DNA of 61,479 nt, filler included, from Catajapyx aquilonaris (lineage: Eukaryota), in NCBI GenBank assembly GCA_000934665.2. It is 3 parts of 3 records of this genome, joined end to end, with 100 filler letters (N's around TTAATTAATTAA, not from the genome) between each part and the next. Parts side by side here need not be neighbours in the genome. Positions count along the whole stretch, not along the records: positions 40,967 to 61,479 come from KZ539507.1; 2 more parts are not named here. One strand, written 5' to 3'. How positions within the stretch are numbered: the stretch's first letter is position 1; every line of letters begins with the position of its first letter. Positions 5,801 through 61,479 of this stretch are shown here, piece after piece. A program made the translations under genes and the position numbers. Under the pieces are notes generated by a model. That model did no database searches, was not told the origin of the DNA, and was given only the letters and a program-made list of their open reading frames with translations.

Positions 5801-5820
5801 CTGTTGAAATATGTACTCAC

Positions 5821-9700: not shown

Positions 9701-9742
9701 GAATAACGATGTAGCAACCGCTAGACGGGGTTGAGTTGGGAG

Positions 9743-24239: not shown

Positions 24240-24437
24240 CAGGGAGCATAATTATACTACCATGGCCGCCAAAACCATATCAAAAATGGCGGACCCTATT
24301 TTTGCCTGTACCCTATTTATACCTCGTTGGCGTTCCCCACACTTCAAGATGGCCGCCAGCCTTGGCAACGGCCCCAAACAGAGAGACGCGAACATCAAAG
24401 GCCCCGACAGAAGTTTGCGCCTCTTATATGCTCCCTG
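24240..24437. mobile_element. MITE family 1 (TIR CAGGGAGCATA, 7-bp TSD ACACAGT)
   Basis: CAGGGAGCATA...TATGCTCCCTG flanked by ACACAGT on both sides; internal sequence matches copies at 53481 and 55799-56378. Confidence 0.85.
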
Positions 24438-25902
24438 ACACAGTTGTTGCTTCCTTTCGACGTGATTGCTGGAGTGAACAATCACTATATTCCTCCTGTA
24501 TGCACCTGTTGGGTCACTCCTTCAGCTTGTATTTTTTCCATCAGATTAATTTCTTCTCCGGTGTGGATCCAATCCCTCTATCTATAGAGGAACAATGATG
24601 TGAGGTCAACCAAGGTCGATTGTTGGGATTAGGTCATGATGAGGATGCAGGTAGAGGACATCACCATTCCCACACTGGGTCTCGCTTCGTTGCACCTGGC
24701 GGAAGTTGCTTTGGGCGGTTTTTATTAGTAGCTAGGGAGAAGGGGAACGAGAGAAAAAAAAAGAGAGGCAGCAGGTAGTTGGTTGGTTGAGGGTTGAGGT
24801 GGGGTGTTGGAGTTGGAGAGAGTTGGAAGGACGCTGCTGGTGGTGCAGCAGTTGGTCCATCAACAACAACAAGGAGCAACAAGAGAAAGAGAGTGAGGGG
24901 ACGAAATACATATAAGTGCTGCCCCCCATCACCAGCAAAGTGTGTGCATGTCGCCATGTGTTGTTGTTGGATAAGGACGAGTGGTATCCAAGGAGACGGA
25001 TAAAAACACCAAAAGATCTCCTGGATTGGGGAGGAGCCTCTCCTCCACTATATACCTTTGGACAAGCAGTGGTTCACCTGCTGTGAGAAGAGGAGGAGGA
25101 GGAACAACAAGAAGCGAAAGAGCCAAGGTCAGTCATATGATGGTCACTCTCGTCTGATGTTAAAGTGCCTGAAAATTGAACCTCATTCAGATCATCCCAC
25201 TGATAATATGAAGAGAAAAAACAAACTCCTTTTTGCAACTCGGCGTGAAAAAAGCACGCAACCGTTTCGCAATGCAATTATTTAGAGCTGCATGTCTTAT
25301 TTCCCTCTCTCTCCATGAAATGTACAGTGCTTGTACAGAGACTGGCTGTACCAAACAAACTGCAACGATATGAGTCACGAAAACGTCCGGAAATGAAAAC
25401 TTATTTGGCTGGGCCACTGACCTCTTATCCGCCTTGTTTTCATTGTTAATAAAAGAGGATTAATAACGAAAATCGCGTGGTCCTAATCCTCAAAAGCATG
25501 CTCATTATCCATTGTTGTTACATGGCCAACAACAGCCCTCAATAATCGGCCACAGCAAACAATAATTGGTGCGTTTTCATTGTTGGAAAATGTTTAATGA
25601 AATCTGATCGGAAATCGCGGTCCTCGAAAAATGTTACAGGTTCATTTCATTGTTAATTAATTGGCATTGTTGCCCACGGCCAATTGTTGCTTATACTGAC
25701 GAGGTTAGTTTTTTTTTTTTTTTTTTTAAACCAGGTTGTTAAAAGTTGGGAGCATTGCCACGTAAACTCTATTGGTACAAAAAAAAAAAGAGTGTGTAAT
25801 ACCAAGGTAATACTTATTAGATTAGCTACCTTGATAAGCACTCGAGTTGTGTAATTACAGCACAAACTCTAAGTGCGATAAGTATAATCTGCGGTGTTAA
25901 AT

Positions 25903-28250: not shown

Positions 28251-31200
28251 ATGGCTACGACTGTGGACAACGCTTTCAAGGTGATCCCGAGGAACTCCAC
28301 CTGCTTCTACATATGGAGGATAGAGGTACGGAGTCGTACTGTAACAGAAAATTGATGAATTAATCGCACTGTAACGGAAAATGCATGAATTAATCGCACT
28401 GTAACGGAAAATGCAAGAATTAATCGCACTGTAGCGGAAAATGCATTGATTTAGTCGTTCTGTAACAGAAAATGCATTAATGAGCCGTTCGCCACTTACA
28501 GAAAATGCAGGTGATGACGGTGCCGCGAGATCAGTACGGCAAGTTCTTCACTGGCGACTCGTACATTATCTTTAGTGTCACCGAGTCTGGAAGCCCGGGC
28601 GGTGTCGCATGCAAGGTAAGTGCGATTGCTATTTCGCTGTATGGCGTAATTTGGTAATACTTGCTTTATCTGCAGACACGTGAGGCCAAGTCGGGCGAAC
28701 AGCTTGAGATGCATGTCCACTTCTGGCTGGGGAAGGAAACAAGTGCGGATGAAGCTGGAGTCGCGGCGTACAAGACTGTTGAGCTGGACGATTGGCTCGG
28801 AGGTGCTCCGGTTCAGCATAGAGAAGTCGAGGGAAGGGAGTCGGGTCGGTTCCTGGCGTACTTCACGGATGGGATTCGGATCCTGCAGGGTGGCGTGGCG
28901 TCCGGGTTCAGGCATGTGGACAACGTGGTGGAGCCCCGGTTGTACCAGGTCAAAGGTCGGCGCAGGCCGGTGGTGCGGCAGATGCCAACGGTGTCGTGGG
29001 ATCACATCAACGACGGGGATGCGTACGTGCTGCAGGTGCCGGAAGCCGTGTTTGTGTGGACCGGACGGAACGCCAACCACATGGAAAAGCTGCAGGTAAA
29101 TATTAACAACAAAAAATTTGTGTGACACTCACTAATCGCTGCGTATTACAGTCGGCCAAGACTGCGCAGAAGTTACGCGGCGAGGCTCCGAAGCCTATCA
29201 GCATCGTGTTCGTCGAGGACGGCAAAGAGCGTGACCTTCCGGATGCTGAGCGGACCGTGTTCAACCGTCATCTGGAGCTCAAAAAGCGGGTGGTTAAACC
29301 GGCTGCCGAAGCTCCGTCCGACGAGGAGCAAGAGAAGCGAGTCAGTTGCGACATCCGCCTGTACCGCTGTTCAGACGAGGACGGGACGTTGCGTGTGACT
29401 GAAGTCAAGACCGGTCCGCTCTCCCAGAACGACCTGATATCGGACGACTCGTTCATCGTTGACGTTGGCGAGCAAGGAATCTGGGTGTGGATCGGACGCA
29501 GAGCCAGCGGGAAAGAGAGGGTCGAAGCGATGCGTAACGCGCAGGGCTTCCTGAAGAAGAAGGGATACGCACATCACACGCACATTGCGCGTGTTGTCGA
29601 CGGAGGCGAGCCGCTTGAGTTCAAGTCGTTGTTCCGCAACTGGAAGGACAGGTTCGAGAGCGGTGCTGGAGGAACCGGCGGGCCACGGTACACGCAAGGA
29701 CGCATCGCACGCACAATCCAGACCAAGTTCGACGCATCGACATTGCACGACACGCCTCAACTGGCAGCGCAAACACAGCTGGTCGACGACGGGTCCGGAA
29801 AAGGCATCGTGTTCCTTGTCCGCGACCATGACGCCAGTCCGCTTCTGCCTAGACGCCACGGCGTTTTCTACGACGGAAACTCGTACATTGTCAGGTACGT
29901 GGCCACTGTTTCGAACAGTAACAATTTCATGAATGTCGACTCGCAGGTATACGTACGAAGCAAACGGGCGTGAGCACATCTTGCTGTACTACTGGCTGGG
30001 AGCAAAGTCGTCAGCTGAAGATCAAGGTACCGCAGCGTTGAAGACAGTGGAGTTGGACGACGAGGTGGACGGACGGGCGGTGCAGGTCAGAGTAGTGCAA
30101 GGGAAGGAGCCGGCTCACTTCATGGCCATTTTCCAAGGGAAGATGATCATATTCCGTGGCGAGGCGCCTAGAGAAGGTGAGCACATTGCCAATTGGTACA
30201 ATCGCAAGTACGAACCATTCGCAATTGCAGATGGCGTCGAGCATGACATGCCGGATCTTCCGATACTGATGCAAGTTCGAGGCCGGTCTGTCCAGGACAC
30301 CGTGTCGATGCAGGTTGAGCTGAGGGCGGCCTCGCTCAACTCCAACGACGTCTTCGTGCTGATGGGAAGCCAGAGCGGAACGTACGTGTGGTGCGGACAG
30401 GGGTCGACCGGGGACGAGCGGGAGATGGCGAAGCAGGTGGCGGGGAAGGCCGGAAAAGGCGAGATGCACACGGTGTTCGAAGGGCAGGAAAAGGACGACT
30501 TCTGGGACGCAATTGGCGGGAAGGAGCCGTACGCCAACGACAAACGTCTGGCGGAATCCAATGAGGCCAGGCCGGCCAGGCTCTTCCAGTGCTCCAATGC
30601 GTCCGGATGCTTCAAAGGTCAGCGTTTCGTCCGATTAATGCGCGTTTAATGCTCACAACCATTTAATTGCAGTTGAGGAGATCACGCATTTCAACCAGAG
30701 CGACCTGGTCGAAGAGGACATGATGCTGCTTGACGCCTGGGACTGCCTGTTCCTCTGGATCGGAAACATGTCCAACAAGGACGAGCAGAAGCTGTCGCAG
30801 GTTGCGGCCAGGGAGTACCTGCAGACGGATCCCGCGGGAAGGGAAGGCGGCGTACCCATCTTCCTGGTGAAGCAAGGGAGCGAGCCGCCCAATTTCACCG
30901 GGTTCTTCGGCGTCTGGGACAGATCCCTGTGGAACGTAAGTCGTTTAGTTACAAGCGCCAACGTTTCGTAATTATTAATTGCGCCAACAGAACAACAAGA
31001 CGTTTGACGAGCTTCGGGAGGAGCTAATGGCCGACAGCCCCCAGATAATGCTCCAGAAGGAAACCGAGGATGAGAATTCCGCAGGAGACGCCTTCGAGGA
31101 CTACCCCAAGTTCCCTCTGGACGTCCTGCGCCTGAAGGATCCGGACGCACTCCCCGATGGAGTCGATCCGACCTTGAAGGAGGTGCATCTGAGCACCGAG

Positions 31201-33900: not shown

Positions 33901-39260
<5,360 letters not shown>

Positions 39261-40966: not shown

Positions 40967-41211
40967 GACATTTCTTAGTCATGGTTATTTCACCCGGACA
41001 TTTCTTAGTCATGGTTATTTAACCTGGACATTTCTTAGTCATGGTTATTTAACCCGGACATTTCTTAGTCATGGTTATTTAACCCGGACATTTCTTAGTC
41101 ATGGTTATTTAACCCGGACCCATGACTAAGAAATGTCCGGGTTAAATAACCATGACAAAAGTGATCTTTTTTCCGGGATAAATACATTTAACCCGGACAT
41201 TTCTTAGAGTG
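40967..41211. mobile_element. MITE family 2 (TIR CACTCTAAGAAATGTCCGGGTTAAA) with 30-bp internal tandem repeat, left-truncated
   Basis: ccggacatttcttagtcatggttatttaac x~5; ends TTCTTAGAGTG followed by TA. Confidence 0.8.
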
Positions 41212-41301
41212 TAGGCAACACTTTTATGCAACAAGTGAACTAATTGTTTTCTACAGATTGACATTATTCTATTATGCAAATTATTTCATGTTCTTACTCA
41301 G

Positions 41302-42445
41302 TCAGACCTCAGCAGAACAGGGCAGCAGCCAGACAGACAGGCGCCAAATGCACTCTACCAGGATCCGTCATCATTTTGGCTGCTTCAGTGAGTCACAACT
41401 CCAACATGAGTAATATCACACACCTAATGCGCATATGTCACAGAATAGTCCTCAATTCGGCCAATGCTTCGGAAGCAGCAGGCTTGGAGATGCGATCAAA
41501 CGTTGCTCTGACCAAGGTGTCGCCAAACAAAGGATGAATAACAACAATGCAGGTGAGTTGATATAAACTTATATGGAGATCTTAGTTTATTAGCATCAAA
41601 CTTGCAGGTCCAGGAAGGCAGCAAAATAGGATCAGACGACCTCAGCAGAAGATAAGACGACAGAAGAGAGGCGTGGAAGACATGCTGAAAAGAGTTGGCG
41701 ATATGGTCAAAGGATTAATTCCTGAAGAACTGAAGTCGTTGATCAACCCAATCCTTAAAGGAACCATCGGAAACCTGCTGCCTGAGGACTTCAAGAGCTT
41801 CGTGTCCGTGGACATGATCATCGAGCTATTCACCAACATGAAGCTCTGGCAGTTTCTGATAGGCGAAGTTTTTGGAGGAGAAGATGACGAAGAAGATCTG
41901 AGGGAAAATGTGCCCAAAGGATTCCAGAACAAAATGTTGGTAAGTGATGTTGTCTCCTGCACATAATTTTTGTGCGAAATTTTGTTCTTTTTATTTCTAG
42001 TGCTTGGACCAGTGCGTGTATGCAAATGCTGGACTGGTAGGTGTCGCCATTCCCTTGATTTTTATCATATATGTTTGTGTTGTGTTGACGCCCACGTGCG
42101 TGACTTTTTCTACACACAGTTGGGCGAGAACCGGAAGCCCGACCACCAAAAAGTGCTGTCCCTGCTTCGAGGTCAAGCGTCTGAAGGCCACGAGTGGACC
42201 CCTGACCTGGAGGACACTTATTGGAGGTGCATGAAGGAGCAAGCCAATGAGAAAAGAAACGAGGCTTGCTTCAAGCAAGGATGTATAGCTAGCTTTCTAT
42301 CAGCTCAATGCATGCTAGACGTTTTGGCCCAGGTAAGACCCCCACAAAAAATGGCCAAACAAAATTTTTTCTCAAGTAAACAGGAGAGCAATAAAAAGTA
42401 ATTAACATTTTTTTGTTGCAGTTGTGCGGTGCTACCGAAAGGTAA
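41302..42445 (+). CDS. Long OBP-like secreted protein A (5' partial). Exons: 41302-41387, 41444-41552, 41608-41939, 42001-42036, 42120-42332, 42422-42445
   Basis: CTLPGSVIILAA, GQCF, KRC, RRQKR|GV, CLDQCVYANAGL, WRC, EAC, QGC-x8-C-x8-C. Paralogue of genes B-E; signal-peptide exons are not seen in this scaffold. Gene model well supported; the OBP label is inferred from Cys spacing. Confidence 0.8.
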
Positions 42446-42822: not shown

Positions 42823-45284
42823 ATGAAAGCGTGTGGATTGCTCGTAGTTTTGCTGGCATCCAGCATGGTAAGGACTCACTGATCAGTATAGGCATACATA
42901 TTTTTACTGACATTCCTAGCAAATCAATTAATTTTTTTGTTGCATTTACCACTCATGTTTCTTCAAAGGAAGGTTTTCATTGAAGGGTCAGAAATTGACC
43001 ACTTTTCATATATTGGTAAGAAAGTGCTCAAATGTTCAAGACACAAACTATCATCATTGTAGACCGGAATAATTTACAAACATTTGATATCTACAATTGT
43101 ACAATATTACCTAACTTTTCGGAAGTGTAAATAAGCAATTCTTGGAGATTATATTTAACAAATTTCAACCAATTTAATGATTGTCTGGTCCTTGACACAA
43201 AGCAAAATAATTGTTTCCTACTCCGAAATTTTGATGCTAGGCAAGTGCACAAGGAGCTCACAGAAGACAACCGACAAAAAGGGGTAAGTCAACATATTGT
43301 TTAAGTTAGTCAGATTCACTAAAATTTAGTACTCATTAATGCAAAAAAAATTCAGTAACGTTTCCTGAGTTCATAATAATTAGGGTGAGTACATTTCAGC
43401 AGGGCAGGTTCAACAAAAGGCAGCAGGACAAGTCGAAGCTAAATGCAGGTTACCCGGATCAGTCATAATTCTGGCAGCAGCTGTGAGTATCATATTACTT
43501 AAAAATCTCATTTCATTGTTTTTTAAAATAATTAATTCCTCCACTTAGAATCACTCTCAGTTTGGAAAATGCTTTTCGGACAATCGCCTCGGAGATGCCA
43601 TAAAGAAGTGCTCCGAACAAGACCTGGCTAAACAACGAATGAAAAACCGCAACAATGGTGTGTGTAACTTAATGGGCCGTATTCCGAGTCAACAACAAGA
43701 AGTTAGTGCAGTGCTTTAAACCACGGGACCCAGTTCACTAAGAAAAGTCGCATTCAGAGTCGCGCTTTAGGCCTAGTTCGGGCCTAGTGAGGACTTAGTG
43801 CGATCCTGCTAAAGCGGTGCACTAAGGCAAAACTTAGTGAAGGGGACCCCCTTCTTTTGCGTCGAACTAACATCGTACTAGGCAGTGGCGGTAGTTTGAA
43901 AATAAGTTGGCAGCTTTTTAAACTGCTGCTAAGCGATTTTTGGCGCTCAATCTTCATTTGTTTCCCCAGCCTGGGGAAACAAACGAAGATCGTCGCCCTG
44001 GGGATTAAATCAAGATTAGATGAAGCACGAATGAAGATCGTCGCCCGCCGACCCCCAGCTCCGATTTTTTTTGCGTAAATTCGTCATTACTAATTATTTA
44101 ATCATCTAAAATGTGTTTTCAGGTCTACAAAATGTATTAAAATCGAAATAGAGATGCATTAATATTTAAAAGCCCATTTACAGCCTAGACGGTGTCCGAA
44201 AACCTGACTGTGAAATCGTGGCCACACCGCGTCTCGCTAGTGCAGTGTTCGAACCTAGTGCGCTCCTCTAAGCAGGCAGTGAGGCGACTCTGAATGGGAG
44301 CAACTAGTGTGGTGCTAATGCGGACCTAGCGTCGCACTAGTTAGTGTGGACTTATGCGCTGCATTAGCGAACGACTCTGAATACGGCCCAATGTTAATTA
44401 TGCTAATATTAGTGTGATGAAGTGTTCATACTTCAACAAGGAACAAGGTGGAAAATATAGTTATGGATATTGGTGATTAATGTAGATTTTAATAAGCAGG
44501 TCAGCAGAATGGACCACATAAGAAGAGAAGGCGACAGAAGAGGAGCATCGAGATGCTGAAGAGGATAGGAGAGATGATTCAAGGGATAATTCCTAGGCAG
44601 CTGAAGGACATAGTAGATCCGATCCTGAGGGGGACCATAGGAAGCCTCCTTCCAGAGGAGCTCAGAAACATGCTGGGAGTGGACATGATCATATCTCTCT
44701 TCACCAACGCGAATCTTTGGGAGGTTTTGGTCGGAGAAGTGTTCGGAGAAGAAGATTCAGCAGCCCTGCTGGCTGAGAGTCTGCCAAGAGGATTCAAGAA
44801 CAAACTGATGGTGAGTTCACTCACCTTCGGACCTTATTGCGCGATTAATTACAATTCACAATTGTTTGTTTCTAGTGCTTGGATCAGTGCGTCTACAACA
44901 ATGCTGGATTGGTGAGTCCTACCATTTCTTGTTGATGACAAAAAAAAAGTTTTGATATTGTCTGAACTATACACAGTTGGGTGAGAACCAGAAGCCGGAC
45001 CACCAAAAAGTGCTGTACCTGCTTCGAGGTCATGCGACTGAAGGTCACGAGTGGACACCTGACCTGGAGGACACTTATTGGAGGTGCATGAAGGAGCAGG
45101 CAAAGGAGACGAGGAACGATGCCTGCTTCAAGCAAGGGTGTCAGGCCAGTGTCCTCTCGGCCCAGTGCATGCTTGACGTCCTGGCAAGGGTCAGTTCAGG
45201 TCACTTTAAGGGTCATCTTTGATAAACAGTGTTAATAATAGGCATCTCATCACATTTCAGCTGTGCGGCGCTATCAAGAAATGA
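42823..45284 (+). CDS. Long OBP-like secreted protein B, ~287 aa. Exons: 42823-42867, 43241-43283, 43400-43482, 43549-43657, 44500-44810, 44876-44911, 44977-45189, 45261-45284
   Basis: Signal-like MKACGLLVVLLASSMASA; 10 conserved Cys; RRRQKR|SI; 36-nt CLDQC exon; TATA-like motif at 42776. Confidence 0.82.
43674..44389. mobile_element. Non-autonomous DNA transposon (~716 bp) in intron 4 of gene B; PIF/Harbinger-group-like ends
   Basis: 17-bp TIR GGGCCGTATTC(C/A)GAGTC with one mismatch; AAT on both sides. The equivalent intron is only 55-59 nt in genes A and C. Confidence 0.85.
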
Positions 45285-45883: not shown

Positions 45884-47568
45884 ATGAAGGTGCCCAGATC
45901 ATTCTGGATAATTTCGCTACTCCTTGTGTCCATCTTGGTAAGGCCAATCAGAATTACTGCAGTAAATCAGTGAGACTTTAAATATAGTTATGTTCCTTCT
46001 CACCAATTTTAAAGTAAGTTGCAAGAAATGTTTTTTTGCTGTTGACAAATTATCATATTTAAAAACAGATGTTATTTCAAGCTGTCACAGGTCATGTCAC
46101 CAAATAGTAAATATTTTTTTGCAGGAGGACATAATGGGAGCTCAGAGAAGGCAACCTAAAAATAGGGGTAAGTACATTGAAAAATTCAGATTTGTGTCTT
46201 ACAGTTATAGTGCAATATAAACTGTACCTACTTCTGATATATTGACGAAGAAGAGATGCCAAATATACCCAGATCCATCGATTGCGATTAGATACAATGA
46301 CTTTTATGGACATGTGGTCATTTCGATAAATTATGAATTACAAGCAAGTAGATTAACAATATATATTAATAAGCATTCAAGTTATTACAATCAAAACAAA
46401 CTGACTTAGTAACAGCAGTGCAAATATCTCTTTGATATTGGCTTTTTTTTTGCATAGGAAGGGTTCAGCCGAAAATAGCGAGACAAACTGGTGGTACATG
46501 CACTTTACCAGGATCCGTCATAATAATGGCAGCTTCGGTAAGTCTTCTGCTTCGTTTGAGAGACAAATCCACCGTCATTTATAATAATGATTAATACATA
46601 AATTAAAATGGCACAGAATAGTCCCCAGTTCGGCCAATGCTTCGCAGACACCAGGCTCGGAGAAGCGATCAAACGTTGCTCCGACCAAGGTCTCGCCAAA
46701 CAACGAATGAACAACAACAATGCAGGTAAGTTGAGGGTTAAAAAAGATTGGTACAACTGGAGCACAAACATGCAAACTATATAGGTCCAGGAAGGCAGCA
46801 AAATAGAATCAGAAGACCTCAGCAGAAGAGAAGGAGACAGAAGAGAGGCGTTGGAGACATGCTGAAGAGAGTTGGCGACATGATAAAGGGCTTCATACCT
46901 GAAGAGGTCAAAGCTCTCCTAAACCCAATCATCAAAGGAACCCTCGGAAACATTTTGCCTCCAAGGTTAGGCAGCATGGTCTCAGTGGACATGATCATAG
47001 ACTTCCTTACTGACATGAACGTATGGGACTATCTGATAAGCGAAGTGTTTGGAAGCGAAGACGGAGAAGAGCTGAGGGAAAACGTGGCAAAAGGATTTCG
47101 AAACAAAATGTTGGTGAGTCACAGAAAGTTCATCATTTCCACCTGACAAGTATTAGTGATTCTTATTTCTAATAGTGCTTGGATCAGTGCGTCTACGCCA
47201 ATGCCGGATTGGTAAGTGCTTCAAAATATTGTTCATTTAAAAAAATTGTTTTGACACTGTACGAACTATACACAGTTGGGGGAGAACCGGAAGCCGGACC
47301 ACCAAAAAGTGCTGTCCCTTCTTCGAGGTCATGCGACTGAAGGTCACGAGTGGACATCTGACCTGGAGGACACTTATTGGAGGTGCATGAAGGAGCAGGC
47401 AAAGGAGACGAGGAACGATGCCTGCTTCAAGCAAGGGTGTCAGGCCAGTGTCCTCTCGGCCCAGTGCATGCTTGACGTCTTGGCAAGGGTCAGTTCAGGT
47501 CACTGTTGGGAAAATAGAGCTAACAATAGGCGTCTTAATTGCAGCTTTGTGGCGCCATCGAGCCATGA
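45884..47568 (+). CDS. Long OBP-like secreted protein C, ~295 aa. Exons: 45884-45937, 46125-46167, 46458-46537, 46617-46725, 46785-47113, 47176-47211, 47276-47488, 47545-47568
   Basis: Signal-like MKVPRSFWIISLLLVSIL; same exon phases as B; RRRQKR|GV; 10 Cys. Confidence 0.83.
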
Positions 47569-48453: not shown

Positions 48454-50507
48454 ATGGACCAGAAAAAGTGCACATCCATCTACTCGCAAATATTTTTTGT
48501 CCTATGCTTGTTGGTGAGTATAATAAATTTTAGTGGTTAAAATGAGAGTGTGATTAATAAATTAATAGTCACGAGTATAACTGGCCTATTTCAGCCGCCA
48601 CAAAAAAAAAATGTGTAGACAAATTTACACTTCTTATTTATTCAGAGCTGAAGGAGAATTGAATGTAAAACGATCAGTCACATTCTTGATTCATTTTATT
48701 ATACGAGGGTGTGTATAGTAATGAACTTTGTATTATCCATTATGAAATGAACATTTTCCTTTCGCAAAATTAGGAGGCGATACACAATAATTTTTCTACT
48801 AGAAAATGACTAGAGAGCTGTACAATTGCGAACAATATGTGATTGATCGTTCTGCACACTTATTATTAGATGACCGATTAATAATTTATATTTTCTAAAC
48901 ACTCTGTATAGGGATGCGCCGCAGCAGCTAGCAGACAACCCGCATGGTCATTGGGTAAGGATAATTTACAACCCTATACATGAACTCTGCTAATTTGACA
49001 GTTAATTACAAGGCAATAAAATCATAATTATTAATTGAAATTATGAAAACAAATAAGTTAAAATGGATTGCTTGCTACTTTTCTAGGACGAGGTCGACTC
49101 GGTGCAAGAGGACGCCATGTTGAAGCCTGTGCCTTTCCTGGATCAGTTATTATAGTGGCCGCAGGGGTGAGTTGTTTATTAGTGTCTATTATAATGCCAC
49201 AAAATTACTTGAAATATAAAGGCAAAACTGTTCATGTAGTATCACACTCCTCTAACAGATGGCGCATCCTCCCTCTCTGCACACTAGCGCCATTCTCAGG
49301 TGGTGCGAGCGATAGTCGTACTATCAACTCGGACAAACAACTGTTAAGAGCGACAGAGCCGATTTTTAAATGATATACTGATAATGTCTTGTGCAGAAAG
49401 ACCCCAAGATCGGCGCGTGCTTCGACGACAACCGCCTGGGAAATGCCATCAAAGTGTGCGCTCACCCTGAAGAGGACCGGGACCAGACCAGGACCAGGCG
49501 TGGCATAGCGGACAGCTTGGAGCGAATGGGCGGGATGATGGCCCAGTTCATACCAGCGGAGTTCAAGGAGCTGGCAGACAAGATCCTTCAAGGGACAGTG
49601 GCCCAGCTAATGCCCGCTGACATGAGGGCCACTCTGACAGTGGACATGATGGTCGAGTTCATGACCAACATGGAGCTCTGGAAGGCCACAATCGACCAGT
49701 TCGTCGGAGACGCCCCAGCAGCAGCCGAAATGAACCATATACACCAAGCCCTCAACCTCTCGGTGAGTCACCGAAGTTATTTCCTCAGCAATGAGCTAAA
49801 CTATTGTACTCTACATTTCAGTGCCTGGATCAGTGTGTCTTCGAAAAGGCTGGATTGGTAAGCATTCTTTATAGTTAACACTTACCAGGTAGTACCACAT
49901 TCATCACATGGATGTCGCATACCACTACTGCCACTTAATAGGGTCATGCGTGAGAAAGTGGTACTATCAGCTCGGACAAACAATAAATTGGAAAGAGCAG
50001 TACAGCTCCGGTTATATGATATTTATCTACAATTTTGGGACAGTTGGGTGATGACCAAAAGCCAGACGACCAGAAGGTCCTGGCTCTTCTCCTGGAGCAC
50101 GCGGAGGCCAATCCGAGACTGAGCCGAGATTGGGTCAACGCCCTGGAGAAGAACTACAGGAGTTGCCTGGAGCTGCAGGCTAGAGAAGTTAGACCACCCA
50201 AGTGCGTCAAGGCAGAGTGTCTTGACAGCAGTTTGGCAGCCCAATGCATGCTGGATGCCCTTGCTAGGGTCAGTCTCACAGGTCATGTTTAGGTCAACAG
50301 TCACTGTCTATTCAAGTCAATTTTAGGCACAGTTTATGTGAAAGAAACAGTCATACATATTGTACTGTATACATTTAAAAAATAGATGACTATAGCCTTT
50401 TATATCAAAGAATAGCGGACAGTTGACCAATTTGTAAATTATTTTTGGCAGTCCTTCAACCTCTCATTGTTTCCTTGTCTTTCTAGCTCTGCAGCGCGAT
50501 CCGCTAA
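48454..50507 (+). CDS. Long OBP-like secreted protein D, ~276 aa. Exons: 48454-48513, 48912-48954, 49087-49166, 49397-49762, 49822-49857, 50044-50268, 50487-50507
   Basis: Signal-like ...IFFVLCLLGCAAA; CAFPGSVIIVAA, GACF, KVC, RTRR|GI, CLDQCVFEKAGL, RSC, PKC, AEC-x8-C-x8-C. Confidence 0.8.
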
Positions 50508-50926: not shown

Positions 50927-53900
50927 ATGGACGTCTTGGGGACTCTGCTGGCGACTCTCCTGTTGGCCACGGGGTTCGGCCCCGGGGCAAAAGGTCGGAA
51001 TCTGATGACCCCTGACCACCACATGATGGTCAAGCGGGGGTCATCCGGACTGGCACCACTCTGCATCTTGCCTGGAACTACAGCCGTTTTCCTCTTTCTG
51101 GTCAGTCTGTTCGAGAGTCTGTTATACGTATACAGTTAAGTTGACTGCAGAGAAGTAGTACACTTTGGTCATGTTTTCAGGCGCATGAGCAGTACGGATC
51201 TTGCTTCCGGGATAGTGACATTACGAGAGTTGTTGAGCTTTGCATCGGAGGAGCTGATGAGTATCCGGAAGAAGACGATGGCGGCGGAGGTGGAGGAGGC
51301 GAAGGAGCCCCAGCAGAAATGAAGGCCATGTCCCAGAACAAAAGTATGCGCATGCGCAGGCCGATCGCTGCTACTTATAACACCGACTATTCCTAAACGT
51401 GATTTTTTTTAAATAATATTTTGTAGCGTTGAAGCGTACCCGGAGGACCATTCCAGGGTTGATGGAACTGTTGAGCCAGCTTGGGATGGGCGCAAATTTC
51501 CTGACGCTGGTGCAGCCTTTGCTTTCCATTGTAATGCAGTTTGTCGGTATGTTCGTCGGGGGTTCTGGAGGAGACGGTGGAGCACCGGCTGATGCTCCAC
51601 AGGTAAGATATCAGCAGCAGGATTTACAATGGGGGGACATTATTCAATTCGGTGCATTTTGCAGGCTTTTGTGAGCCTTCGAAGGGCATTGGGGCGTGTC
51701 CAGATCATATCGAGACTGACGGATATCCCTGAGGAGGAGCTTCTCTACAGGATCCAGGATTACATGATCGATCATCACGTGACAGATCCAGCAGCGTACG
51801 AGCACCTGAACCAACTAGTCGAGAGCGTCCACCAGAGGAGCAAGAGGGCATCTGAGACAATCAACAATCCTTTCTTCCAGCAGCAACAGCAGGACAACAC
51901 CACTCCAGTTCCTCCTCCAGCCACTCTTCCTCCTCCACTATCCCTGGACATTTATCCGATCCTGGAACCTTTCTTACTCGCTTTTCTCAGGGTAGCTAAA
52001 CCATTCCTGCCCCTGTTCGTTCCTGGGATCGAACCAGACAACCCGTTCATAGCAGGCCTGAAGGATCTGGTGGAAGGTCGGAATCTCACCACCCAAGAAG
52101 TTCTGGCCGGATTCCTCCACTTCTTGCAATCACTCAATTACACTGGTGAGTCCTAACTTAAGCTCATATCAGTTTGTACCTGCTAACACTGCTTTCACTG
52201 TTTGGGTGTATAGAAACGGACATGGCTGAAGGACTGAGGTCATTCCTGATCAAAGTGGAGACCAGTCCTCGAGAGGTGCTTGAGCAGGTGGAGACTTGGA
52301 TCAGAGGAGCAGAGAGCAACGCCACTGATGCCTTGGATGGACTGAGAGACGTTGTGGAAGAACTGAACGGAACGGCCATCGGAGTGCTGGCCAGTCTGCA
52401 GTACATGACAGAACACGGACAGGTAAAGGTCACTGTCCTGACCCTCTCACGCGATTGTCGCCCTTGACTAACGCCTTAGTGACCTCAATATTGCACCTTT
52501 TATTCACACAGCTTCCGACCTTGCACACGTTGAATCCGGACCACTCCCAGGACAGGGATCGTCGTGCACTCAGAGTACCTTCATTCCTGGCGTACCTGCA
52601 GCCCAGGGGCATACGAATACCTGCAGTCATTCAGCCGGCCATCAACGCAATACTAGACGTGATCAAACCCTTCGTACCAGAAGAGAACAGGAACATGCTA
52701 ACGGCTGAACTTTTCCAGGTAATATCCCATCTAATATTATTCTGATTTTTACGAGGTACACACGTCACCAGAGTATAGTCAGCTGTAGATTTCTTACGAG
52801 CGCAACCGACTGCGCACCACCATTCGCGCAGCTCCTCTGCTGTGGAAGCGTTGGAAATAAGTGCAGAGCTTATCGACCAATACGCCCACTATACAGCGCT
52901 TACCAACTATCAGTGATAATTCCAACCCTGCAAGCTGCGCGAACTGTGGTGCGCACTCGGTTGTGCTAGTTTAAAAAAAATCATATATAGTACCCATAAC
53001 AGCCGTCTCATTTGACTGATTGTTTGCAGGAAGCATTGTCGGACCCTCAAAACCTGCAACTGACTTTGAGCACACTTATGCCCGAGTTCCTGAGGCCATT
53101 CATCGACGCACTTCCGGTGGAATACATCTTCAGGAGGATACCTGTAAGTTCAACAAACAGACGGGAACAAACCGAAACGGGCCGATTTGCTTCGGTTACC
53201 TTTTCATATACCAATGTTTTCCATTACAGTGCGTGGACCGATGCGTCTTCAGACGAATGGACTTTGTAAGTCACTCTGCGAAAATACTAACAATGCTCCG
53301 TTCACATGTCTATTGACCTTTTGACCTCATGTTGACCTATAGGATGACGAAGAGGGCGAGGCACCAGATGTGAACAAGGTGTTGGCGTACCTGAGGCGCG
53401 TGGCAGGAAGACAATGGCAGCCTACAGCTGAAGCAGAGTTCAGAAAATGCGTCTTCAGAGGTGCGCACACTTGACCTGGCCAGGGAGCATATACTACATA
53501 AGATGCGCAAACTTCGGTCAGCGCCATTGATTTCCGCGTCTCTCTGTTTGGGGCCGTTGCCAAGGCTGGCGGCCATTTTGAAGTGGGGGCAACGCCAACG
53601 AGGTGTAAATAGGGTACAGGCAAAAATAGGGTCCGCCATCTTTGATGGTTTTGGCGGACATGGGAACTACACGGCAAGAACACGCGCGAATCAAAGATGG
53701 CGGACCCTATTATTGCCTGTACCCTATTTATACCTCGTTGGCGTTGCCCCCACTTCAAAATGGTCGCCAGCCTTGGCAAAGCCCCAAACAGAGAGACGTG
53801 GAAATCGAATGCTTGCGCCTCTTATGTAGTATAATTATGCTCCCTGACCTGGCCATGTCAAATGACTGAAATGACCTTGACCTTTTTAATAATCTTCCAG

Positions 53901-54144
53901 CCCGCGACAACCTCTGCAAATTCGACGACTGCCAGCTGTACACCCAAGTCGGGGACTGCATGTCCATGGCTCTTATGGGGGTAACTACAAATCAAACCTA
54001 TAACCGCACTAAAAAAGAAAAGGTGTTGACCCTCGTATATTGTTTCAGCTGTGCTACCCCCAGTTCCAACCCGGAGGCTGGGATTACACCCGGACCCAGC
54101 AGGTGATCCAATCCTTGCCTGCTCGCAGGAGAAAGACCCACTGA
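50927..54144 (+). CDS. Very long OBP-like secreted protein E, ~617 aa. Exons: 50927-51100, 51181-51343, 51427-51602, 51665-52145, 52214-52422, 52512-52718, 53030-53143, 53230-53265, 53343-53460, 53901-53980, 54049-54144
   Basis: Signal-like MDVLGTLLATLLLATG; CILPG, GSCF, ELC, then a ~400-aa Cys-free insert, then CVDRCVFRRMDF (36-nt exon), RKC, NLC, DDC-x8-C-x8-C. All junctions are GT-AG and in phase. Confidence 0.78.
52796..52970. mobile_element. Small inverted-repeat element in an intron of gene E
   Basis: ~38-bp imperfect inverted arms (52796-52833 and 52933-52970); a related arm begins at 55584. Confidence 0.65.
53481..53846. mobile_element. MITE family 1, foldback form with two inverted arms, in an intron of gene E; TSD ACCTGGC
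   Basis: Same TIRs; ACCTGGC at 53474-53480 and 53847-53853; left half is the reverse complement of the right half. Confidence 0.88.
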
Positions 54145-54903: not shown

Positions 54904-55731
54904 ATGGCACAAGTCGCCTCTCTCCTTTTGTTGTCCGCCATCGCGTGTCTAGTAGCCGCCGATGGACAGGAACGCAACAAGGTATACGACACGACACGCT
55001 TATTCATTCAATCATTAGGCTAACGTAATGTAATATTGCTTATCATTCGATGCAGATCGCTTGTCCTGTACCCAGAAGAGCACCGCAAGAGTTGGTTCGA
55101 CTAGTCATGCATTGCAACAAGCTGCTCATGAAAGACGTTGTTCCGGTAAGTCAATGTCTACTATATACTATAGAGAAGAAGGCCTTTAGCCAAGGGGTTG
55201 TTTTTATATTGATTCAGACTGAACCACTTCAGCTCCTGAACCTCTGAATCATTACAAGAAAAAACCCGCCCAGAGTGAATACTCGATTACCACTTTCCGA
55301 GGTTGCTGTGTATTTGGCCGAAAAATTAAGAATATTGCTGGAAATGATTTTTTTTTTCCTGCATCGCTTCCCATTCCTAGCTGTTAATTACGTGGCCGGA
55401 GCGCTGGTTCCTCCTCCTCCTAGGACTCCCATTTCCCTGGCCACGACCGCTCCAGTCAGAAGTCCAAGGATGAACAGGATCACCACCATCAGGCTGGTGC
55501 ACCCTTTGCTATCGGCACCCATCTGGAAAAAAAGAAAAAAAAAAGAGATGGAAAATGGTAGTATTATAGACGAATAACGTTTAACGAGCGCAACCGAGTG
55601 CGCACCCACTGTCACGCAGCTCCATTGTTCCGACAACGTTGCCAGAGTTACTCCTCAGGGGCCACACTCACATAACCGATGAGGTTCGAATCGTTCGATC
55701 CAGAGGCATGGCAAAAGCGGGCCATTTTGTC

Positions 55732-55774: not shown

Positions 55775-58700
55775 NNNNNNNNNNNNNNNNNNNNNNNNAT
55801 TCCCGCGTCTCTCTGTTTTGGTGCTTTGCCAAGGCTGGCGGCCATTTTGAAACGGGGGCAACGCCAACGAGGTATAAATAGGGTACAGGCAGGCCGTAAA
55901 GGTCCGCCATCTTTGATGGATTTGGTCGCCATGTCACTACACTGCCGTATGAGCTCCTTGCACTTTTCTACGTATTAATTCCGTAAGTACGGGAAAAATA
56001 TTTAAATTCGCGTGTGTTCTTGCCGTGTAGTGCCGTGGCTACCAAAAACCATCAAAGATGGCGGACCTTTACGGCCTGCCTGTACCCTATTTATACCCCG
56101 CGTTGGCGTTGCCCCCGTTTCAAAATGGCCGCCAGCCTTGGCAACGGCCCCAAACAGAGAGACGCAGACATCAAAGGCGCCGACCGAAGTTTGCGCCTCT
56201 TATATGTAGTATATGCTCTCTCTGTTTGGAGCGTTTCCAAGGCTGCAAAACGGGGGCAACGACCGCGACCCCGTTGGCGTTGCCCCCGTTTCAAAATGGC
56301 CGCCAGCCTTGGCAACGCTCCAAACAGAGAGACGCGGGAATCGAATGTTTGCGCCTCTTATGTAGTATATGCTCCCTGACCTGGCTATCACTTTATTGCC
56401 AAACCATTTCTGAGAGGAAGAAAAAGTTGAGAGAACACTCACCATCCCTTGGCATATGCCCATTCCTTCGGGAAGACCTTCCAAAACGGGTTCCTCTTCC
56501 GAGCCTTTGTCGCTTTCCTGCGAACAAATCCGGGTCTCAAAATGGCGTTCAAAATATTAGTTCTGAACCACAGTTTATATACCTTCTTGACGAGATTCTT
56601 CGCCAAGCTTCCGGTCAGCTTCCTCAGCTTTTTGAAGGCTGCAGGTATCCGGGACGCCAGCTGGTCGTGCAGCTGTCTGATCTGCTCTTGGCTTAGCCCG
56701 GACAACCGGTTGAATATGGCGTCTACCAGGGTGCCACAGTCGCAGGTCGGAGGGCAGCCGCAGTTGATGGCGGCCTGTCTGGCCCTCTCGCAACCTTCCA
56801 CTGTTGGCGGAGGGGGCGGCTTCTTCAGGTAGGATCGAGGCAGCTTCCTCTTCATGTACGGGTGGCCTTTGAAAGGCTCCTTACTTACTTCCGCGACCAA
56901 CTCGGCCCCTGCGTCCGGCTCCGCCTCGAAGTACTCCACGACATCTGACACCGAACCACCACTGATTGACAGCAGGTCAGAGATGACGGCTGGCAACGAC
57001 GCAGATGGCGGACGAGACAAAGGAACCATTTGCGAGCCAGATGAAGGCAGTGAGGCCGATGGTGCTCGAGGCATAGGAGCCATATTCAGATCCGAACCAG
57101 TTGGGGATAGAGCCCTATATAGACATCAAGGAAGATTGAGAAGAAGAAAAAAAAAATCATGCGAGCGTGATTCGAGTAGACTTTTTCTCATTGGGTAGCG
57201 GGGAATGAGGCTGTTTTTGCCCTACACTCTAAGAAATGTCCGGGTTAAATGTATTTATCCCGGAAAAAAGATCACTTTTGTCATGGTTATTTAACCCGGA
57301 CATTTCTTAGTCATGGTTATTTAACCCGGACACTTGTTAGAGTGTATACACTCTAAGAAATGTCCGGGTTAAACAACCATGACCAAGAAATGTCCGGGTT
57401 AAATAACCATGACAAAGAAATGTCCGGGTTAAATAACCATGACGAAAGTGATCTTTTTCCGGGATAAATACATTTAACCCGGACATTTCTTAGAGTGTAT
57501 CCATGGTTTTTTTTCTGATGAGAAAAAAGTCTGAATATCACACGTGCGATCTATCAGACGGATCAAAACCTATACTTTTGTGACTCGTCATCCTGTTCCG
57601 CATCAGCTGATGCTGGATCCGAAGTCTCATCTGGAGACGGCTGTTCGAACTGTTTCTCATCCTGGGAAAAGGACGCGACCTCAGGTTCAACCGGTTCAAC
57701 TGATGCCAGTGAAGAGGTTTCCACGTTGGGAGATCCGACGATTGATCCTGTCTCGGAGGCTGCGCTCTCAGGTTCGGGCTTGATGGCCGTCAGCGAGCCT
57801 TCATCTGCTGGATTGGGATCTGTACAGGAGTTAACAAGATGAGATTTATTCCTGTAATGCACATTTGGCCAGAATATCACTAGGCAACACGGCAAAGCAA
57901 AATCTACTCAATGTGCAATAATTGTCTCTTGTTACAAATATGAGAGCATTGGCCCATATAAATGTGATTGTAGACACCTCCAGCTAGGTATGTTATTATA
58001 GACTAACATGTAGAATTCTGACCAAAAATATTTGGATTATTTTCATGACATGCGAAACATATACGATATGATTGTACAGAGTAAATAGAGTGGTGTTATT
58101 ACCTAATGCTGGTTCCGACATGACTTGGAAATTTTGACGTGTCACGAAGCAGGGAATAATTTTTTTCCGGGAGTTTTTAAAAAATACAACCGGTTCGTAC
58201 AAGAATTTTGAGCAACCTGGTTTGTCTCATTCCTTGGAAACGGAGCAACAATAATTTCTAACATTACACAACAGATAATTTTTTTTAACAATTCTAGCAA
58301 ATTGATATGTTTATTAATTATATTTTCAGTGCATGTTGCAGTGCATTCTGGATGAAGGAGATGCGGTGAGTGTCATATGTAATTATTCACATTTTAATGC
58401 ATTATTGATGTAAGCACTTTTTTTTTTCCAGCTGGACACAGATGGGTGGCCAGTGTCCCAAAAAGTTGTGGACATGTTTCTTCCATTAGTCGAGTACTCA
58501 GTAATTAGGAACGTCACCAAGAAAGCGTACGACTCTTGCATTGCTCGAGGTCAGCATTTCACGCCTTACACAACGACATAATATTTTATTACTAATTAAT
58601 TATTATTCATATTTTAATTTGTGCAGCAAAAATGGCTGATTTGGATGATGTCACTGTGTGCGATCAGCTAGAACATATCTACAACTGTGCAACTGATATT

Positions 58701-59054
58701 GTTGAAGAGGTATTACACATATTACATTCAAGAGTGGGCAGAATTCTGAATAATTGTTCACCCCAGCAATCAACTCAAATAACTATTTTTTTACTGTAAC
58801 AATTCGCTCATTGCTTTATTGCTGGTTGCTGAGCAAGTTGCTGAGGTATTACTTGCTGTGTCATACAACTCAATATTTGCAGTAATTTTTTATAAAAAAA
58901 ATATACACGTAACAGTTGGAAAGTGAATACTTAATAATAAACAGCTTAGTGCCAAAAATAGCTAATAGTTGCAGATACTGATATTGGAACATAAATGGAT
59001 ATCTAACAAATATTATTAATTATTTTGCAGGAGTGCATCAAGGTTCGGAATTAG
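54904..59054 (+). CDS. Short OBP-like protein F, ~142 aa. Exons: 54904-54981, 55056-55145, 58330-58365, 58432-58549, 58627-58709, 59031-59054
   Basis: Signal-like MAQVASLLLLSAIACLVAA; CPVP, MHC, CMLQCILDEGDALDTDGWP, DSC, TVC-x8-C-x8-C. Exon sizes 36/118/83 match gene G. Joining across the 3.2-kb intron 2 is inferred from paralogue structure. Confidence 0.75.
55799..56378. mobile_element. MITE family 1, rearranged composite copy (left end lost in the N gap)
   Basis: Repeated cgttggcgttgccccc...aatggccgccagccttggcaacg arms in both orientations; ends with TATGCTCCCTG. Confidence 0.8.
56439..58121 (-). CDS. Nested antisense gene of unknown function, ~312 aa. Exons: 58121-58103, 57819-57576, 57114-56439
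   Basis: ATG exon MSEPAL+G (phase 1) fits the acceptor at 57820; the phase-2 donor fits the acceptor at 57115. Acidic Ser/Pro-rich N-terminus, Cys cluster CERARQAAINCGCPPTCDC, basic C-terminus. Confidence 0.65.
57225..57497. mobile_element. Two adjacent MITE family 2 copies (57225-57344 and 57349-57497), each flanked by TA
   Basis: TA-CACTCTAAG...TTAGAGTG-TA-TA-CACTCTAAG...CTTAGAGTG-TA. Confidence 0.85.
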
Positions 59055-59218
59055 CCAATAGAGTACACTGTATCATGCGAAGTGAACAATAAAAAATTGA
59101 ACTTGTATCAAACTGGATGACGCAATGAATTAATCTGTTTAGGGAAAAAAACGTTTCCTGTTACATCCTATACCATCCAGCTAGGCTTTATATTTTTAAT
59201 ATTTATCGTCCTAACGGA

Positions 59219-60499
59219 ATGGATGCGTCCACAGCAAAGACTCTCTTGCACCTGGGAATCCTCTGCAACTTGGCGGTGTACGGACAGGTAAAAGAGTCTT
59301 GCTGTCTTCACATATCGCAAAAAGTCACTTCGCCAAAAAAATTATATTTTTTGCAGAAGCAACTTTGCCTTGTTCCCAACTCACCTACGCCAGAGTTCGA
59401 GGAGGTGCTGACTTTTTGCGAAAATGGAGTTAAGGATGGCACGATAGACGTAAGATTATAACCACCCCACCCTATGTCACGTACTGTCACAATAGTTTAA
59501 ACTGCTTTTGACTGTATATTGTTAATTGTTCAATAATTACAGTGTGACATCGAGTGCGTCATGGAACAGACAGGTGTGGTAAGTTATGATGTTTCTTGGA
59601 TCGCCTGCCTGACAGCCAAAAACTTTTACCGCCAACACACATTTTCCTTTACCGCCAATTCCCCTGACAACCAATTCCCTTTACAGCAGAAAAACCCCTG
59701 ACAGCCAAAAATCTTTTACCGCCAATTCCCTGACAGCTTCTCCTGATGGTATAAATATTTTTTAAATATTAAATAAAAATTAGAAAAATACAGTAATATG
59801 TAATTAACGGAAATAAATAAATAATCAAATGATTAAATGTATAAATAGGAGCTAGACAGCTTCCTTTTGTTTTGATTCGTCTTATCACCGTTGGGGGCAG
59901 CTAATATGTTGTAAGGGTTGGAAATAACGCAATATTATTCCAGATTGATGAGGATGGATGGCCTGATGGTAAATTAGTGGCGGACGTGCTGACGCCTGGT
60001 GATAAATACATCACGTTTAAAAACGTCGTAACTACAAGCCTTGATGACTGCACGCAACAAGGTACTTATAATATTATTATTTGACATTCTCCAGGTATGT
60101 GTCTAATTAATATTTATGTACCGGCAGGTAAGGATCACAAAGAGTTTGAGGGTGGAAACTGCGAGAGGCTATCATGGATCGACGAGTGTTTCTCGGATCT
60201 AGTCACACAAGTACGTGTACCGGCACTTCACTAAGGTCATGTCACATGACTGTTGAAATAAAATAAAATGAATTATTAATTAATTAAAATATTTTGATAA
60301 TTTGGTTTATAAAGATACATTCCGAAGTTGCTTGTCCATGACGATTACACAGCAAGAAAATAGCAAAAAAAATCGTTGCTGACAAGTCGAATCGAGTCAT
60401 AAAATCTTTTTAAAGTCATTAGACATAAAAAAGTGATATAACTTAATTTTATCTATTTTTTTCCAGAATTGCGAGTTCCAGGTAGACGACAGCGAATGA
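59219..60499 (+). CDS. Short OBP-like protein G, ~143 aa. Exons: 59219-59287, 59357-59449, 59543-59578, 59944-60061, 60128-60210, 60467-60499
   Basis: Signal-like MDASTAKTLLHLGILCNLAVYG; CLVP, TFC, CDIECVMEQTGVIDEDGWPD (OBP-type C2-x3-C3...G-x2-D-x-DG), DDC, GNC-x8-C-x8-C. Confidence 0.83.
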
Positions 60500-60757
60500 C
60501 ACTTCAAACATTGCATTAAGTTATTCCCCACCCAACTCAGCTGTACTTATCAAACAAATAATAAAAATTACACCACACACAATAAGTCTTTTGAATTTCG
60601 CCCAGTATGTGTACCGAGACCGGAAGTTGCATCATTGAAGAGAAGATAAAGAGTTGGACACAAACAGGACGCTGCAACCAGCGATTACTTATGGTTCGAT
60701 TCCTGAACATCACGTAACCATATCTTGTAAAACCACAGTTCCCTTCCAGGTTCCAAG

Positions 60758-61345
60758 ATGGCAACCACCTTCATGCTTCTTCCCTTGCTGATGCTGGCCA
60801 CTGCAGTAAGTTAATTAGTCCAATGTAAAATGAAATAATTAGCACAAAAATGCGTAATGCTGAAACTGGATGGAATTATATCGCTATCTTGTTTCCCATT
60901 CTTACAATTATTTGCCTCAACTTGGCTTCTGCCTAATTAACTAATTGCGATCATCTCTGATATAATTGCTCAGAGGGCAGATGGCAGCTGCTTCGTTCCG
61001 GACACGCTCCCAGAGACACTCAAGTTGTCCACAATTTCCTGCATCAACCAGCACGAGGAGCACGATCCACAAGTGAGAAATAATGAGTAATTAGCCAGCA
61101 ATTTGCATGATATAGGCCTACATGTCAAGTGTCAGTCAGTGTCATAATATTTGACAGCATGAAATAATGTGTTGCGTAACCAATTAATCTGGCCATCATG
61201 GTGCAGAAGCAAGATATCATTACGTCATGAAATGATTTATTAAACAGAAATGTTGAAAATCAATTATAATGGTGGTATAATTTACTAACTAAACTCCTCT
61301 TTGTTTCAGTGTTTTACCAAGTGCGTGTTAGAAGATATGGGAACT
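60758..61345 (+). CDS. Short OBP-like protein H (3' partial). Exons: 60758-60805, 60974-61072, 61310-61345
   Basis: Signal-like MATTFMLLPLLMLATARA; CFVP, ISC, 36-nt exon CFTKCVLEDMGT. Runs off the window end. Confidence 0.75.
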
Positions 61346-61479
61346 GTAAGTAGCCTACACTAGCTCATCAATATACTGATGTTACAATGGGGAACTAGCC
61401 TTGGTCTGGGATTTGGGATTTTTGTTCATAACTAGCTAGCCCATGCCCGTAAACATACATTCCATCACTCTGTTGCATC

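Follow-up and report, generated by a model that had tools for sequence, protein, structure and literature searches.

Gene E of Catajapyx aquilonaris raises the question of whether a secreted protein of the odorant-binding protein (OBP) kind can also be a precursor that is cut into several proteins. The gene is found at positions 50927–54144 (+ strand) of a 61,479 nucleotide (nt) stretch of DNA, termed the window, which consists of three joined parts of assembly GCA_000934665.2. Positions 40967–61479 represent the entire 20,513-base contig C3837 (KZ539507.1) of the 285.6 Mb genome. The DNA is eukaryotic in type, with short GT-AG introns, and a tandem array of five related genes, A–E, begins at position 41302. 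E is predicted to encode a secreted 617 amino acid (aa) OBP-like protein that has ten cysteines, a 429 aa insert devoid of Cys and three convertase motifs. Judged from the gene model, this anatomy is real and unusual, a variant of the OBP kind encoded by one gene. The explanation favored here, which as a whole chain of steps we hold tentatively and at slightly less than an even chance, is that E is a secreted OBP-like precursor whose C1–C2 loop carries a family-specific helical module, gated by convertase sites, which underwent multiplication long ago and later diverged.

Structure of gene E

The coordinate-built model of E has 11 exons: exons 1–4 at 50927–51100, 51181–51343, 51427–51602 and 51665–52145, exons 5–8 at 52214–52422, 52512–52718, 53030–53143 and 53230–53265, and exons 9–11 at 53343–53460, 53901–53980 and 54049–54144. 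All ten introns are GT-AG and the joined frame is open through 617 codons. In exons 1–6 only the frame dictated by the splice phases is free of stop codons. A codon score trained on genes A–D ranks the used frame above both off-frames in six of seven segments, the exception being the 29 aa C-terminal tail; introns score −0.31. A TATA-like site is located 42 nt 5′ of the ATG, and neither AATAAA nor ATTAAA is present inside the gene or within 400 nt past the stop codon. Intron positions after aa 58, 508, 520 and 586, all of phase 0, are common to E and A–D, and the phase 1 intron after aa 112 is common to E and A–C.

Exon 1 (50927–51100) displays a hydrophobic N-terminus, which by hydropathy is a probable signal peptide (mean hydropathy of the 10-mer, 2.32), followed by a short pro-region and Cys46. 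For chain calculations signal cleavage was taken to be after aa 22. Exon 2 (51181–51343) has Cys66 and Cys79, which would correspond to C1a and C1, and then a Gly/acidic linker. The C-terminal core is encoded by exons 8–11 (53230–54144) and contains Cys509, 513, 556, 565, 570, 579 and 588 and the 29 aa tail.

The region 51427–53143 that drew the attention of the first-pass annotation corresponds to exons 3–7. E is modelled as one open 11-exon gene rather than as separate genes; the latter reading was ruled out because there is a single signal exon, a single Cys set and no internal polyadenylation hexamer, and because the introns are short.

Two basic sequences outside the insert are possible extra trimming sites, i.e. 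a dibasic KR at aa 36–37 (51032–51037), on the N-terminal side of the first Cys, and a cluster of basic residues at aa 612–615 (54121–54132), near the C-terminus. Intron 9 (53461–53900) is filled by a palindromic element resembling a miniature inverted-repeat transposable element, which recurs in the window at 24240–24470 and 55800–56400 and at paralog loci elsewhere in the genome (L020:7300–7650 and L018:9390–9730).

Convertase motifs and predicted chains

Three R-X-[KR]-R motifs are present in the insert region of E on the + strand: RTRR at aa 116–119 (51435–51446), RSKR at aa 229–232 (51836–51847) and RDRR at aa 416–419 (52554–52565). The first-pass annotation had reported these three motifs, and each was recovered in place in the splice-phase-forced frame. 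By chance, three or more such motifs arise in 0.165% of 20,000 whole-protein shuffles and in 0.02% of 20,000 insert shuffles (4/20,000). Motif 3 aligns with the site of the single-insert paralogs, i.e. genes A–D and four genes found elsewhere in the genome, where the P4 and P1 Arg residues are invariant in 8/8 exons examined. The paralog modules behind this site are 29–70% identical (15 pairs from six genes), always below the identity of the core exons. The genome has six P_proprotein (convertase) domain matches above cut-off, and Drosophila Dfurin1 processes the mammalian furin consensus (PMC3014772; this and the other cited papers are drawn on here through excerpts). Motif, enrichment and family conservation together predict convertase cleavage after R119, R232 and R419.

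Ten cysteines are common to A–E. Their spacing is 19, 12, 429, 3, 42, 8, 4, 8, 8 in E and 19, 12, 101–126, 3, 43–47, 12, 4, 8, 8 in A–D. Three Cys of E precede the insert, seven follow it and none is found within aa 80–508. Given this split, two pieces without Cys would be freed if every one of the three sites were cut. The same two fragments had been proposed in the first-pass annotation, and they are indeed what the 3 + 7 Cys split, the three sites and the one reading frame predict. The N chain of the cut protein would span aa 23–119 and have three Cys. Piece M1 (aa 120–232; 51447–51847, +), encoded by exon 3 and the 5′ part of exon 4, has 113 aa, a mass of 12.4 kDa, a pI of 5.4 and a net charge of −4. 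Piece M2 (aa 233–419; 51848–52565, +), encoded by exons 4–6, includes a Gln/Pro linker and has 187 aa, 20.8 kDa, a pI of 4.5 and a net charge of −14. Neither has Cys. Module M3 (aa 420–508; 52566–53143, +; exons 6–7) is 89 aa long and would remain joined to the C-terminal core, at the start of a 198 aa C chain with seven Cys. OBP disulfides are interlocked, C1–C3, C2–C5 and C4–C6 (PMC10926425). Because the 3 + 7 split is odd and OBPs have the C1–C3 bond, the core of E would be expected to stay disulfide-linked after cutting.

M2 displays four good N-glycosylation sequons compared with 0.89 expected (P 0.008). The insert as a whole has five non-overlapping 18-mers with a hydrophobic moment of at least 0.5 (shuffle mean 0.54; 0/300 shuffles reach five), none of them with a moment of 0.6 or above. 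Exchangeable apolipoproteins have regular Pro-punctuated 11/22-mer amphipathic repeats that bind lipid; the E insert has amphipathic helices punctuated by Pro, which do not form a regular tandem array, and no Pfam apolipoprotein family was matched in single-exon translations. Cationic amphipathic antimicrobial peptides are short and net-positive. On the calculated masses and charges M1 and M2 are acidic helical proteins and not short cationic peptides, and a membrane-lytic or antimicrobial reading of the membrane activity suggested in the first-pass annotation is disfavored because the freed pieces would be large (12 and 21 kDa) and acidic, the larger one with four sequons.

Relatedness of the modules

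M3 matches a profile of the eight paralog inserts at 15.8 bits (0/500 shuffles), with or without the site. By this match M3 is the homologue of the single insert of A–D, and the likeness noticed in the first-pass annotation is borne out. Gapped alignment of whole modules within E gave a score for M2–M3 that is equalled in 1/500 shuffles.

A 22-residue helix that aligns without gaps and displays the pattern [QE]P-x11-F[VL] recurs in M1 (aa 136–157; 51495–51560), M2 (aa 266–287; 51947–52012) and M3 (aa 436–457; 52614–52679), all on the + strand. These repeat helices are nearly uncharged (net 0 to +1), with a mean hydrophobicity of 0.74–0.96 and a moment of 0.38–0.50. The M2–M3 helix score is 44 (0/2000 shuffles; 1/5000 in a local-composition null). 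M1–M3 scores 25 (8/2000 and 2/5000, respectively), M1–M2 scores 14 (142/2000 shuffles), and M2 and M3 taken jointly against the M1 helix give a score of 39 (4/2000; the best of ten control regions from A–E scores 5); these M1 figures are somewhat optimistic because the window was picked after the M2–M3 match had been seen. M2 aa 308–343 also match M3 aa 459–495 (score 45, 0/1000), and M2 has a second partial copy of that stretch within itself, aa 302–326 compared with aa 374–398 (3/1000). Two other internal comparisons in E gave nothing (617/1000 and 531/1000).

On these alignments M2 is clearly a partial duplicate of M3, over approximately 60 residues, and M1 is probably a much-decayed duplicate. 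Comparison of exons 2–7 at the DNA level disclosed no recent duplication (best local score 24), and the predicted duplication events are judged to be old because no DNA-level repeat is left. Multiplication of the module inside the loop, as first proposed, thus holds for M2, which is clearly derived from M3; M1 is linked by the single 22 aa helix and failed the gapped test. The accompanying description, that each site is followed by a hydrophobic helical module, needs a qualification. A related helix does lie behind each site, but the pieces are 113, 187 and 89 aa long and the helix starts not immediately but 17, 34 and 17 residues after the scissile bond in M1, M2 and M3. A phase 0 intron follows the scissile bond by 52 residues in M1 and 51 in M3; M2 shares neither offset.

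A model of the single insert of gene D has five to six helices (mean pLDDT 64, about 80 over the middle). In a Foldseek search 8 of the 43 matches listed are saposin-like, the best being the open form of SapD (E 2.7, probability 0.12, TM 0.26–0.35). A wide structural search gave a best Z of 4.6 and no saposin or OBP chain among the 50 matches listed. Saposin-like proteins usually have three disulfides (PMC7407137), and no Cys is present in any of the eight paralog modules or in the E insert. A saposin-like shape of the modelled insert is no more than a lead.

Relationship to odorant-binding proteins

The OBP-type spacings C2-x3-C3 and C5-x8-C6 are present in E and in A–D, as we number the cysteines, and the core of E is identical to A–D at 26–30 of 81 residues. 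Two matches came from a full HMMER scan in which the core-exon profile was the query. P0001, a repetitive tick protein, was set aside as a repeat artefact. P0002, a 296 aa protein on a 982-nt JGI contig (E 4e-6 to the core-exon profile), is the sole credible outside relative. Its score with PBP_GOBP (PF01395) is 11.7 bits (E 0.29), below the curated cut-off of 22 bits. The top of its three matches among PDB sequences is the B. mori general odorant-binding protein (E 1.4), with cysteines collinear on both sides of the insert. The P0002 model has a pLDDT of 53 overall and 76–86 over aa 171–220; Foldseek places a moth pheromone-binding protein (PBP) at rank 1 (E 0.83), and 12 of the 43 matches listed are of the OBP family, nine named as OBP or PBP and three sand-fly SP15 chains, which have the OBP fold. 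The A–E family is called OBP-like because these three signals (Pfam, PDB sequence and Foldseek) converge, each of them sub-threshold.

Other searches were negative. No PBP_GOBP match was found in 11 + 8 single-exon translations, unspliced exons being short, and the three matches listed from a genome-wide search with this domain are all on another contig than that of E. A wide structural search with P0002 gave no OBP or saposin chain among the 50 matches listed, only generic helical pairs, with the long insert helix dominating. Searches of PDB sequences with profiles A3 and A4 gave nothing credible, the ESM Atlas had no usable match for exon 4 of E or the core exon of D, the core exon of C matched 0/7 candidates among longer proteins, and P0002 as query matched only itself among 1,125.

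A tree built from 11 core sequences places E on a long branch, outside the seven single-insert genes included (support 96/93), with the reserve that placement of so long a row is unsure. An old divergence of E from the single-insert genes is suggested because of this long outside branch.

OBPs are small single-chain carriers that are classed by cysteine number or domain doubling (PMC10926425, PMC3134979) and are usually of 10–30 kDa (PMC3134979). E, known from sequence alone, is like them in being predicted to be secreted and helical, in the C-x3-C and C-x8-C spacings and in having at least eight conserved Cys; it differs in its length of 617 aa, in the 429 aa Cys-free insert with three convertase motifs and in having no match above any threshold. 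Plus-C OBPs have eight or more conserved Cys plus a conserved proline (PMC10926425). The ten Cys of A–E reach this number. The Plus-C proline sits just after C6; no proline is found between the last two Cys in any of A–E, and E was not assigned to Plus-C. Dimer, or two-domain, OBPs have two complete OBP Cys domains in tandem (PMC3134979), and E as a Dimer OBP was ruled out, as it has a single Cys set and no Cys in aa 80–508.

Proposed maturation

The 11-exon message, as modelled from the DNA, would give a 617 aa protein whose split ten-Cys core folds with N-terminal Cys bonded to C-terminal Cys. A furin-type convertase would then cut after the three Arg residues. The expected result is a two-chain, disulfide-held core with M3 as a new free N-terminal arm, and M1 and M2 would be excised as Cys-free pieces, much as in proinsulin. 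In the most conjectural part of the scheme, the Pro-punctuated, very hydrophobic helices of the acidic pieces may attach to neutral lipid, to wax or to a hydrophobic surface. They would probably do so in a lipid–protein particle or film that also includes the core, and not as free lytic peptides. A broader version would make the first loop a cassette, gated by convertase sites, in which a lipid-binding module of saposin-like type and without Cys is carried, the animal counterpart of the plant-specific insert, with E as the polyprotein step, yielding a two-chain carrier and two free lipid- or surface-active proteins that build a lipoprotein particle, a surfactant film or an adhesive secretion. 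This version we consider rather unlikely.

Several observations weigh against the proposed maturation. Sites 1 and 2 occur in gene E only. An orthologue of E was not found in genome searches, exons 4, 6 and 9 matching only their own genomic place. Two of the four inserts of the related 8-Cys subfamily described below have no R-X-K/R-R motif, so an amphipathic loop insert can exist uncut. Neither M1 (68/500 shuffles) nor M2 (180/500) matches the paralog-insert profile, and gapped whole-module alignment is not significant for M1–M3 (29/500) and M1–M2 (382/500); the ungapped 22 aa window that does join M1 to the others was selected with the M2–M3 match in view. Exon skips that keep the frame would remove zero to two of the motifs and leave one to three. 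Kinship with OBPs is based on Cys spacing and the sub-threshold matches of P0002, and a lipid- or surface-binding role would be drawn from helix character alone.

Other explanations differ from the proposed one mainly in what becomes of the sites and the modules. In the main rival, E would be nicked and yet stay intact: some or all sites would be cut (all three, or the ancestral site 3 alone), with the modules packed on each other and on the core, so that E would be a single-chain version of a paralog oligomer and cleavage a maturation switch rather than a release. We regard this as unlikely, with an appreciable chance nevertheless. With H values of up to 0.96, the repeat helices are hydrophobic enough to make it unlikely that they remain free in water, and all paralog modules have a net negative charge (−4 to −8). 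Moreover a single cut in A–D frees nothing, and the ancestral role of the site would thus be unmasking or loosening of the module and cannot be release. What this explanation leaves unaccounted for is that long Gly-rich and Gln/Pro-rich linkers would allow packing without new sites, yet a site precedes each added module. Should E be left unprocessed altogether, the basic tetrapeptides would belong to flexible linkers, and E would be an OBP-like protein with a very long loop, an extreme case of the Obp59a type. The length of Obp59a is reported to be unusual and its cysteine pattern unique (PMC3134979), the helical loop inserts of P0002 and of the C1629 8-Cys gene have no motif, and the linkers of A–C are Arg/Lys-rich in general. 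Linker composition does not explain why the P4 and P1 Arg are invariant in 8/8 paralogs, including D and the C6042 genes, which have no basic-rich linkers, nor why an insert that is acidic overall should display three motifs (0.02% of shuffles); we find the unprocessed protein quite improbable.

Alternative splicing could also supply modules one at a time, the 11-exon form being minor or absent and exons 3–7 being spliced so that each message has one or two modules. Six skips are in frame and free of stops (exons 3+4, 4+5, 6, 7, 6+7 and 4+5+6), leaving one to three sites. Such cassettes are very unlikely: five of the six introns flanking exons 3–7 are short (62–89 nt), module borders differ from exon borders, and exons 3, 4 and 5 are not skippable singly. 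In a membrane hairpin, the helices of M1 and M2 would span or enter the membrane and tether the OBP core until a convertase sheds it. In favor of this are a Kyte-Doolittle 19-mer value of 1.86 with no charge for the M1 helix and 1.59 for the M2 helix, as well as the location of the good sequons, which either precede the M1 helix or follow that of M2. Glu, Arg and Lys are present in the M2 helix, a homologue of the M3 helix, which is amphipathic; site 2 would lie on the cytosolic side and so be separated from furin; and the paralog modules are not transmembrane-like. We consider a hairpin highly improbable. Least credible is an antimicrobial or lytic polyprotein of the Baramicin/apidaecin type, whose freed pieces or sub-peptides permeabilise microbial membranes. 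Baramicin A is likewise built of repeats separated by RXRR (PMC8423362), plant inserts activated by acid have antimicrobial activity (PMC7407137), and cationic Trp/Lys helices (net +5, moment 0.62) are found behind RRRR in two of the four 8-Cys members. Set against this, M1 and M2 are 113 and 187 aa long with net charges of −4 and −14 and have sequons, and the repeat helices have a net charge of 0 to +1.

Comparison with known systems

Long OBPs are known, e.g. Obp59a and two-domain forms (PMC3134979, PMC4145409). Obp59a orthologues resemble E in unusual length and a unique Cys pattern (PMC3134979, PMC6191283), but Obp59a is a conserved single-copy gene, whereas the E family is lineage-expanded and has a hydrophobic helical insert. 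Related modules split by RXRR motifs within one secreted precursor are a feature of Baramicin A and apidaecin (PMC8423362), and E likewise has related modules split by RXRR-type motifs, the relation being clear for M2 and M3 and weak for M1. Those precursors contain short near-identical peptides and no disulfide scaffold; E has long, diverged, acidic modules inside a predicted folded disulfide domain, and its released pieces (net −4 and −14) would be neither short nor net-positive. The extra length of Obp59a falls after helix 1.

In proinsulin-type precursors, convertases excise a Cys-free internal part and disulfides hold the N and C chains together. The proposed maturation of E would be alike in this respect. 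The fold is unrelated, the internal part in E consists of 300 aa with repeated hydrophobic helices, and the ancestral single-site form would excise nothing. The saposin-like plant-specific insert is a mostly helical module of about 90–100 residues that sits within another fold and is frequently cleaved in maturation (PMC7407137), as is proposed here. It differs in that its host fold is an aspartic protease; the host in E is OBP-like and the module has no Cys. By analogy E would work like a cross between a proinsulin-type two-chain precursor and the plant-specific insert, as a member of neither group nor of the Baramicin type.

A convertase-cut OBP was not found in the literature searched, which included few of the subscription journals and may thus have missed a published case; supplementary OBP alignments could show similar inserts. 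OBP and furin terms co-occur in PMC3886914 and PMC8310156 in unrelated contexts, the excerpt on lacewing venom OBPs (PMC12758981) mentions no processing site, and that of PMC6938034 holds no OBP text. If the proposed maturation is true, proteolytic maturation and polyprotein output would be added to the repertoire of the OBP scaffold. Such a family, in which the fold contains an invariant convertase site and one member has a tripled module, bears on the role of non-olfactory OBP expansions.

Paralogs and neighboring features

Genes A–D each have a single site and insert and are on the + strand: A at 41302–42445 (its 5′ end is lost at a repeat and gap), B at 42823–45284 (287 aa), C at 45884–47568 (295 aa) and D at 48454–50507 (276 aa). 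Genome searches gave four further 10-Cys single-insert paralogs, three on contig C6042 and one on C1629 (L018:2870–4570, 5480–7350 and 8520–10000 with L019; L020:5450–7730), and ten-Cys genes found in the genome number nine. The middle C6042 paralog contains an N and its core exon is shortened. A search for homologues with the insert profile matched 0/7,999 scored sequences. The core exons of B and C (44977–45189 and 47276–47488) encode proteins of 96% identity and their inserts are 47% identical, and this disparity suggests either that the core has undergone gene conversion or that the insert changes fast.

A sister subfamily with eight Cys includes P0002 and genes on C6042, C1629 and C12997 of this genome (L018:477–1246, L020:8517–9778 and L025:253–1020). 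It is without the first Cys of the C-x3-C pair and has a different loop insert, i.e. an acidic linker and a Trp/Lys amphipathic helix. In the L018 and L025 genes the helix (moment 0.62, net +5) lies behind RRRR; the L020 gene and P0002 are without the motif. These cationic helices have a more antimicrobial-like look than any part of E.

Additional small-exon genes, whose cysteine exons are OBP-like, are located 3′ of E on the + strand, at 54905–55146, 58300–59100, 59220–60500 and 60760–61350; no Pfam family was matched in the two exons of these that were scanned. Open frames at 56439–57125 and 57563–57907 on the minus strand are Ser/Pro/acidic-rich and display a four-Cys cluster and a Lys-rich helical tail; they may possibly encode another secreted precursor. 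Upstream of A–E in the window are frames of ordinary housekeeping genes, which we take to be GDP-mannose dehydratase-like (20786–22258, +), gelsolin/villin-like (28658–30971, +) and Rho-kinase-like (approximately 34000–39260, −). An element of 30-bp units with inverted ends is found at 57217–57499, and a partial copy is located at 40967–41219, at the start of the contig, where the first exons of A are missing.

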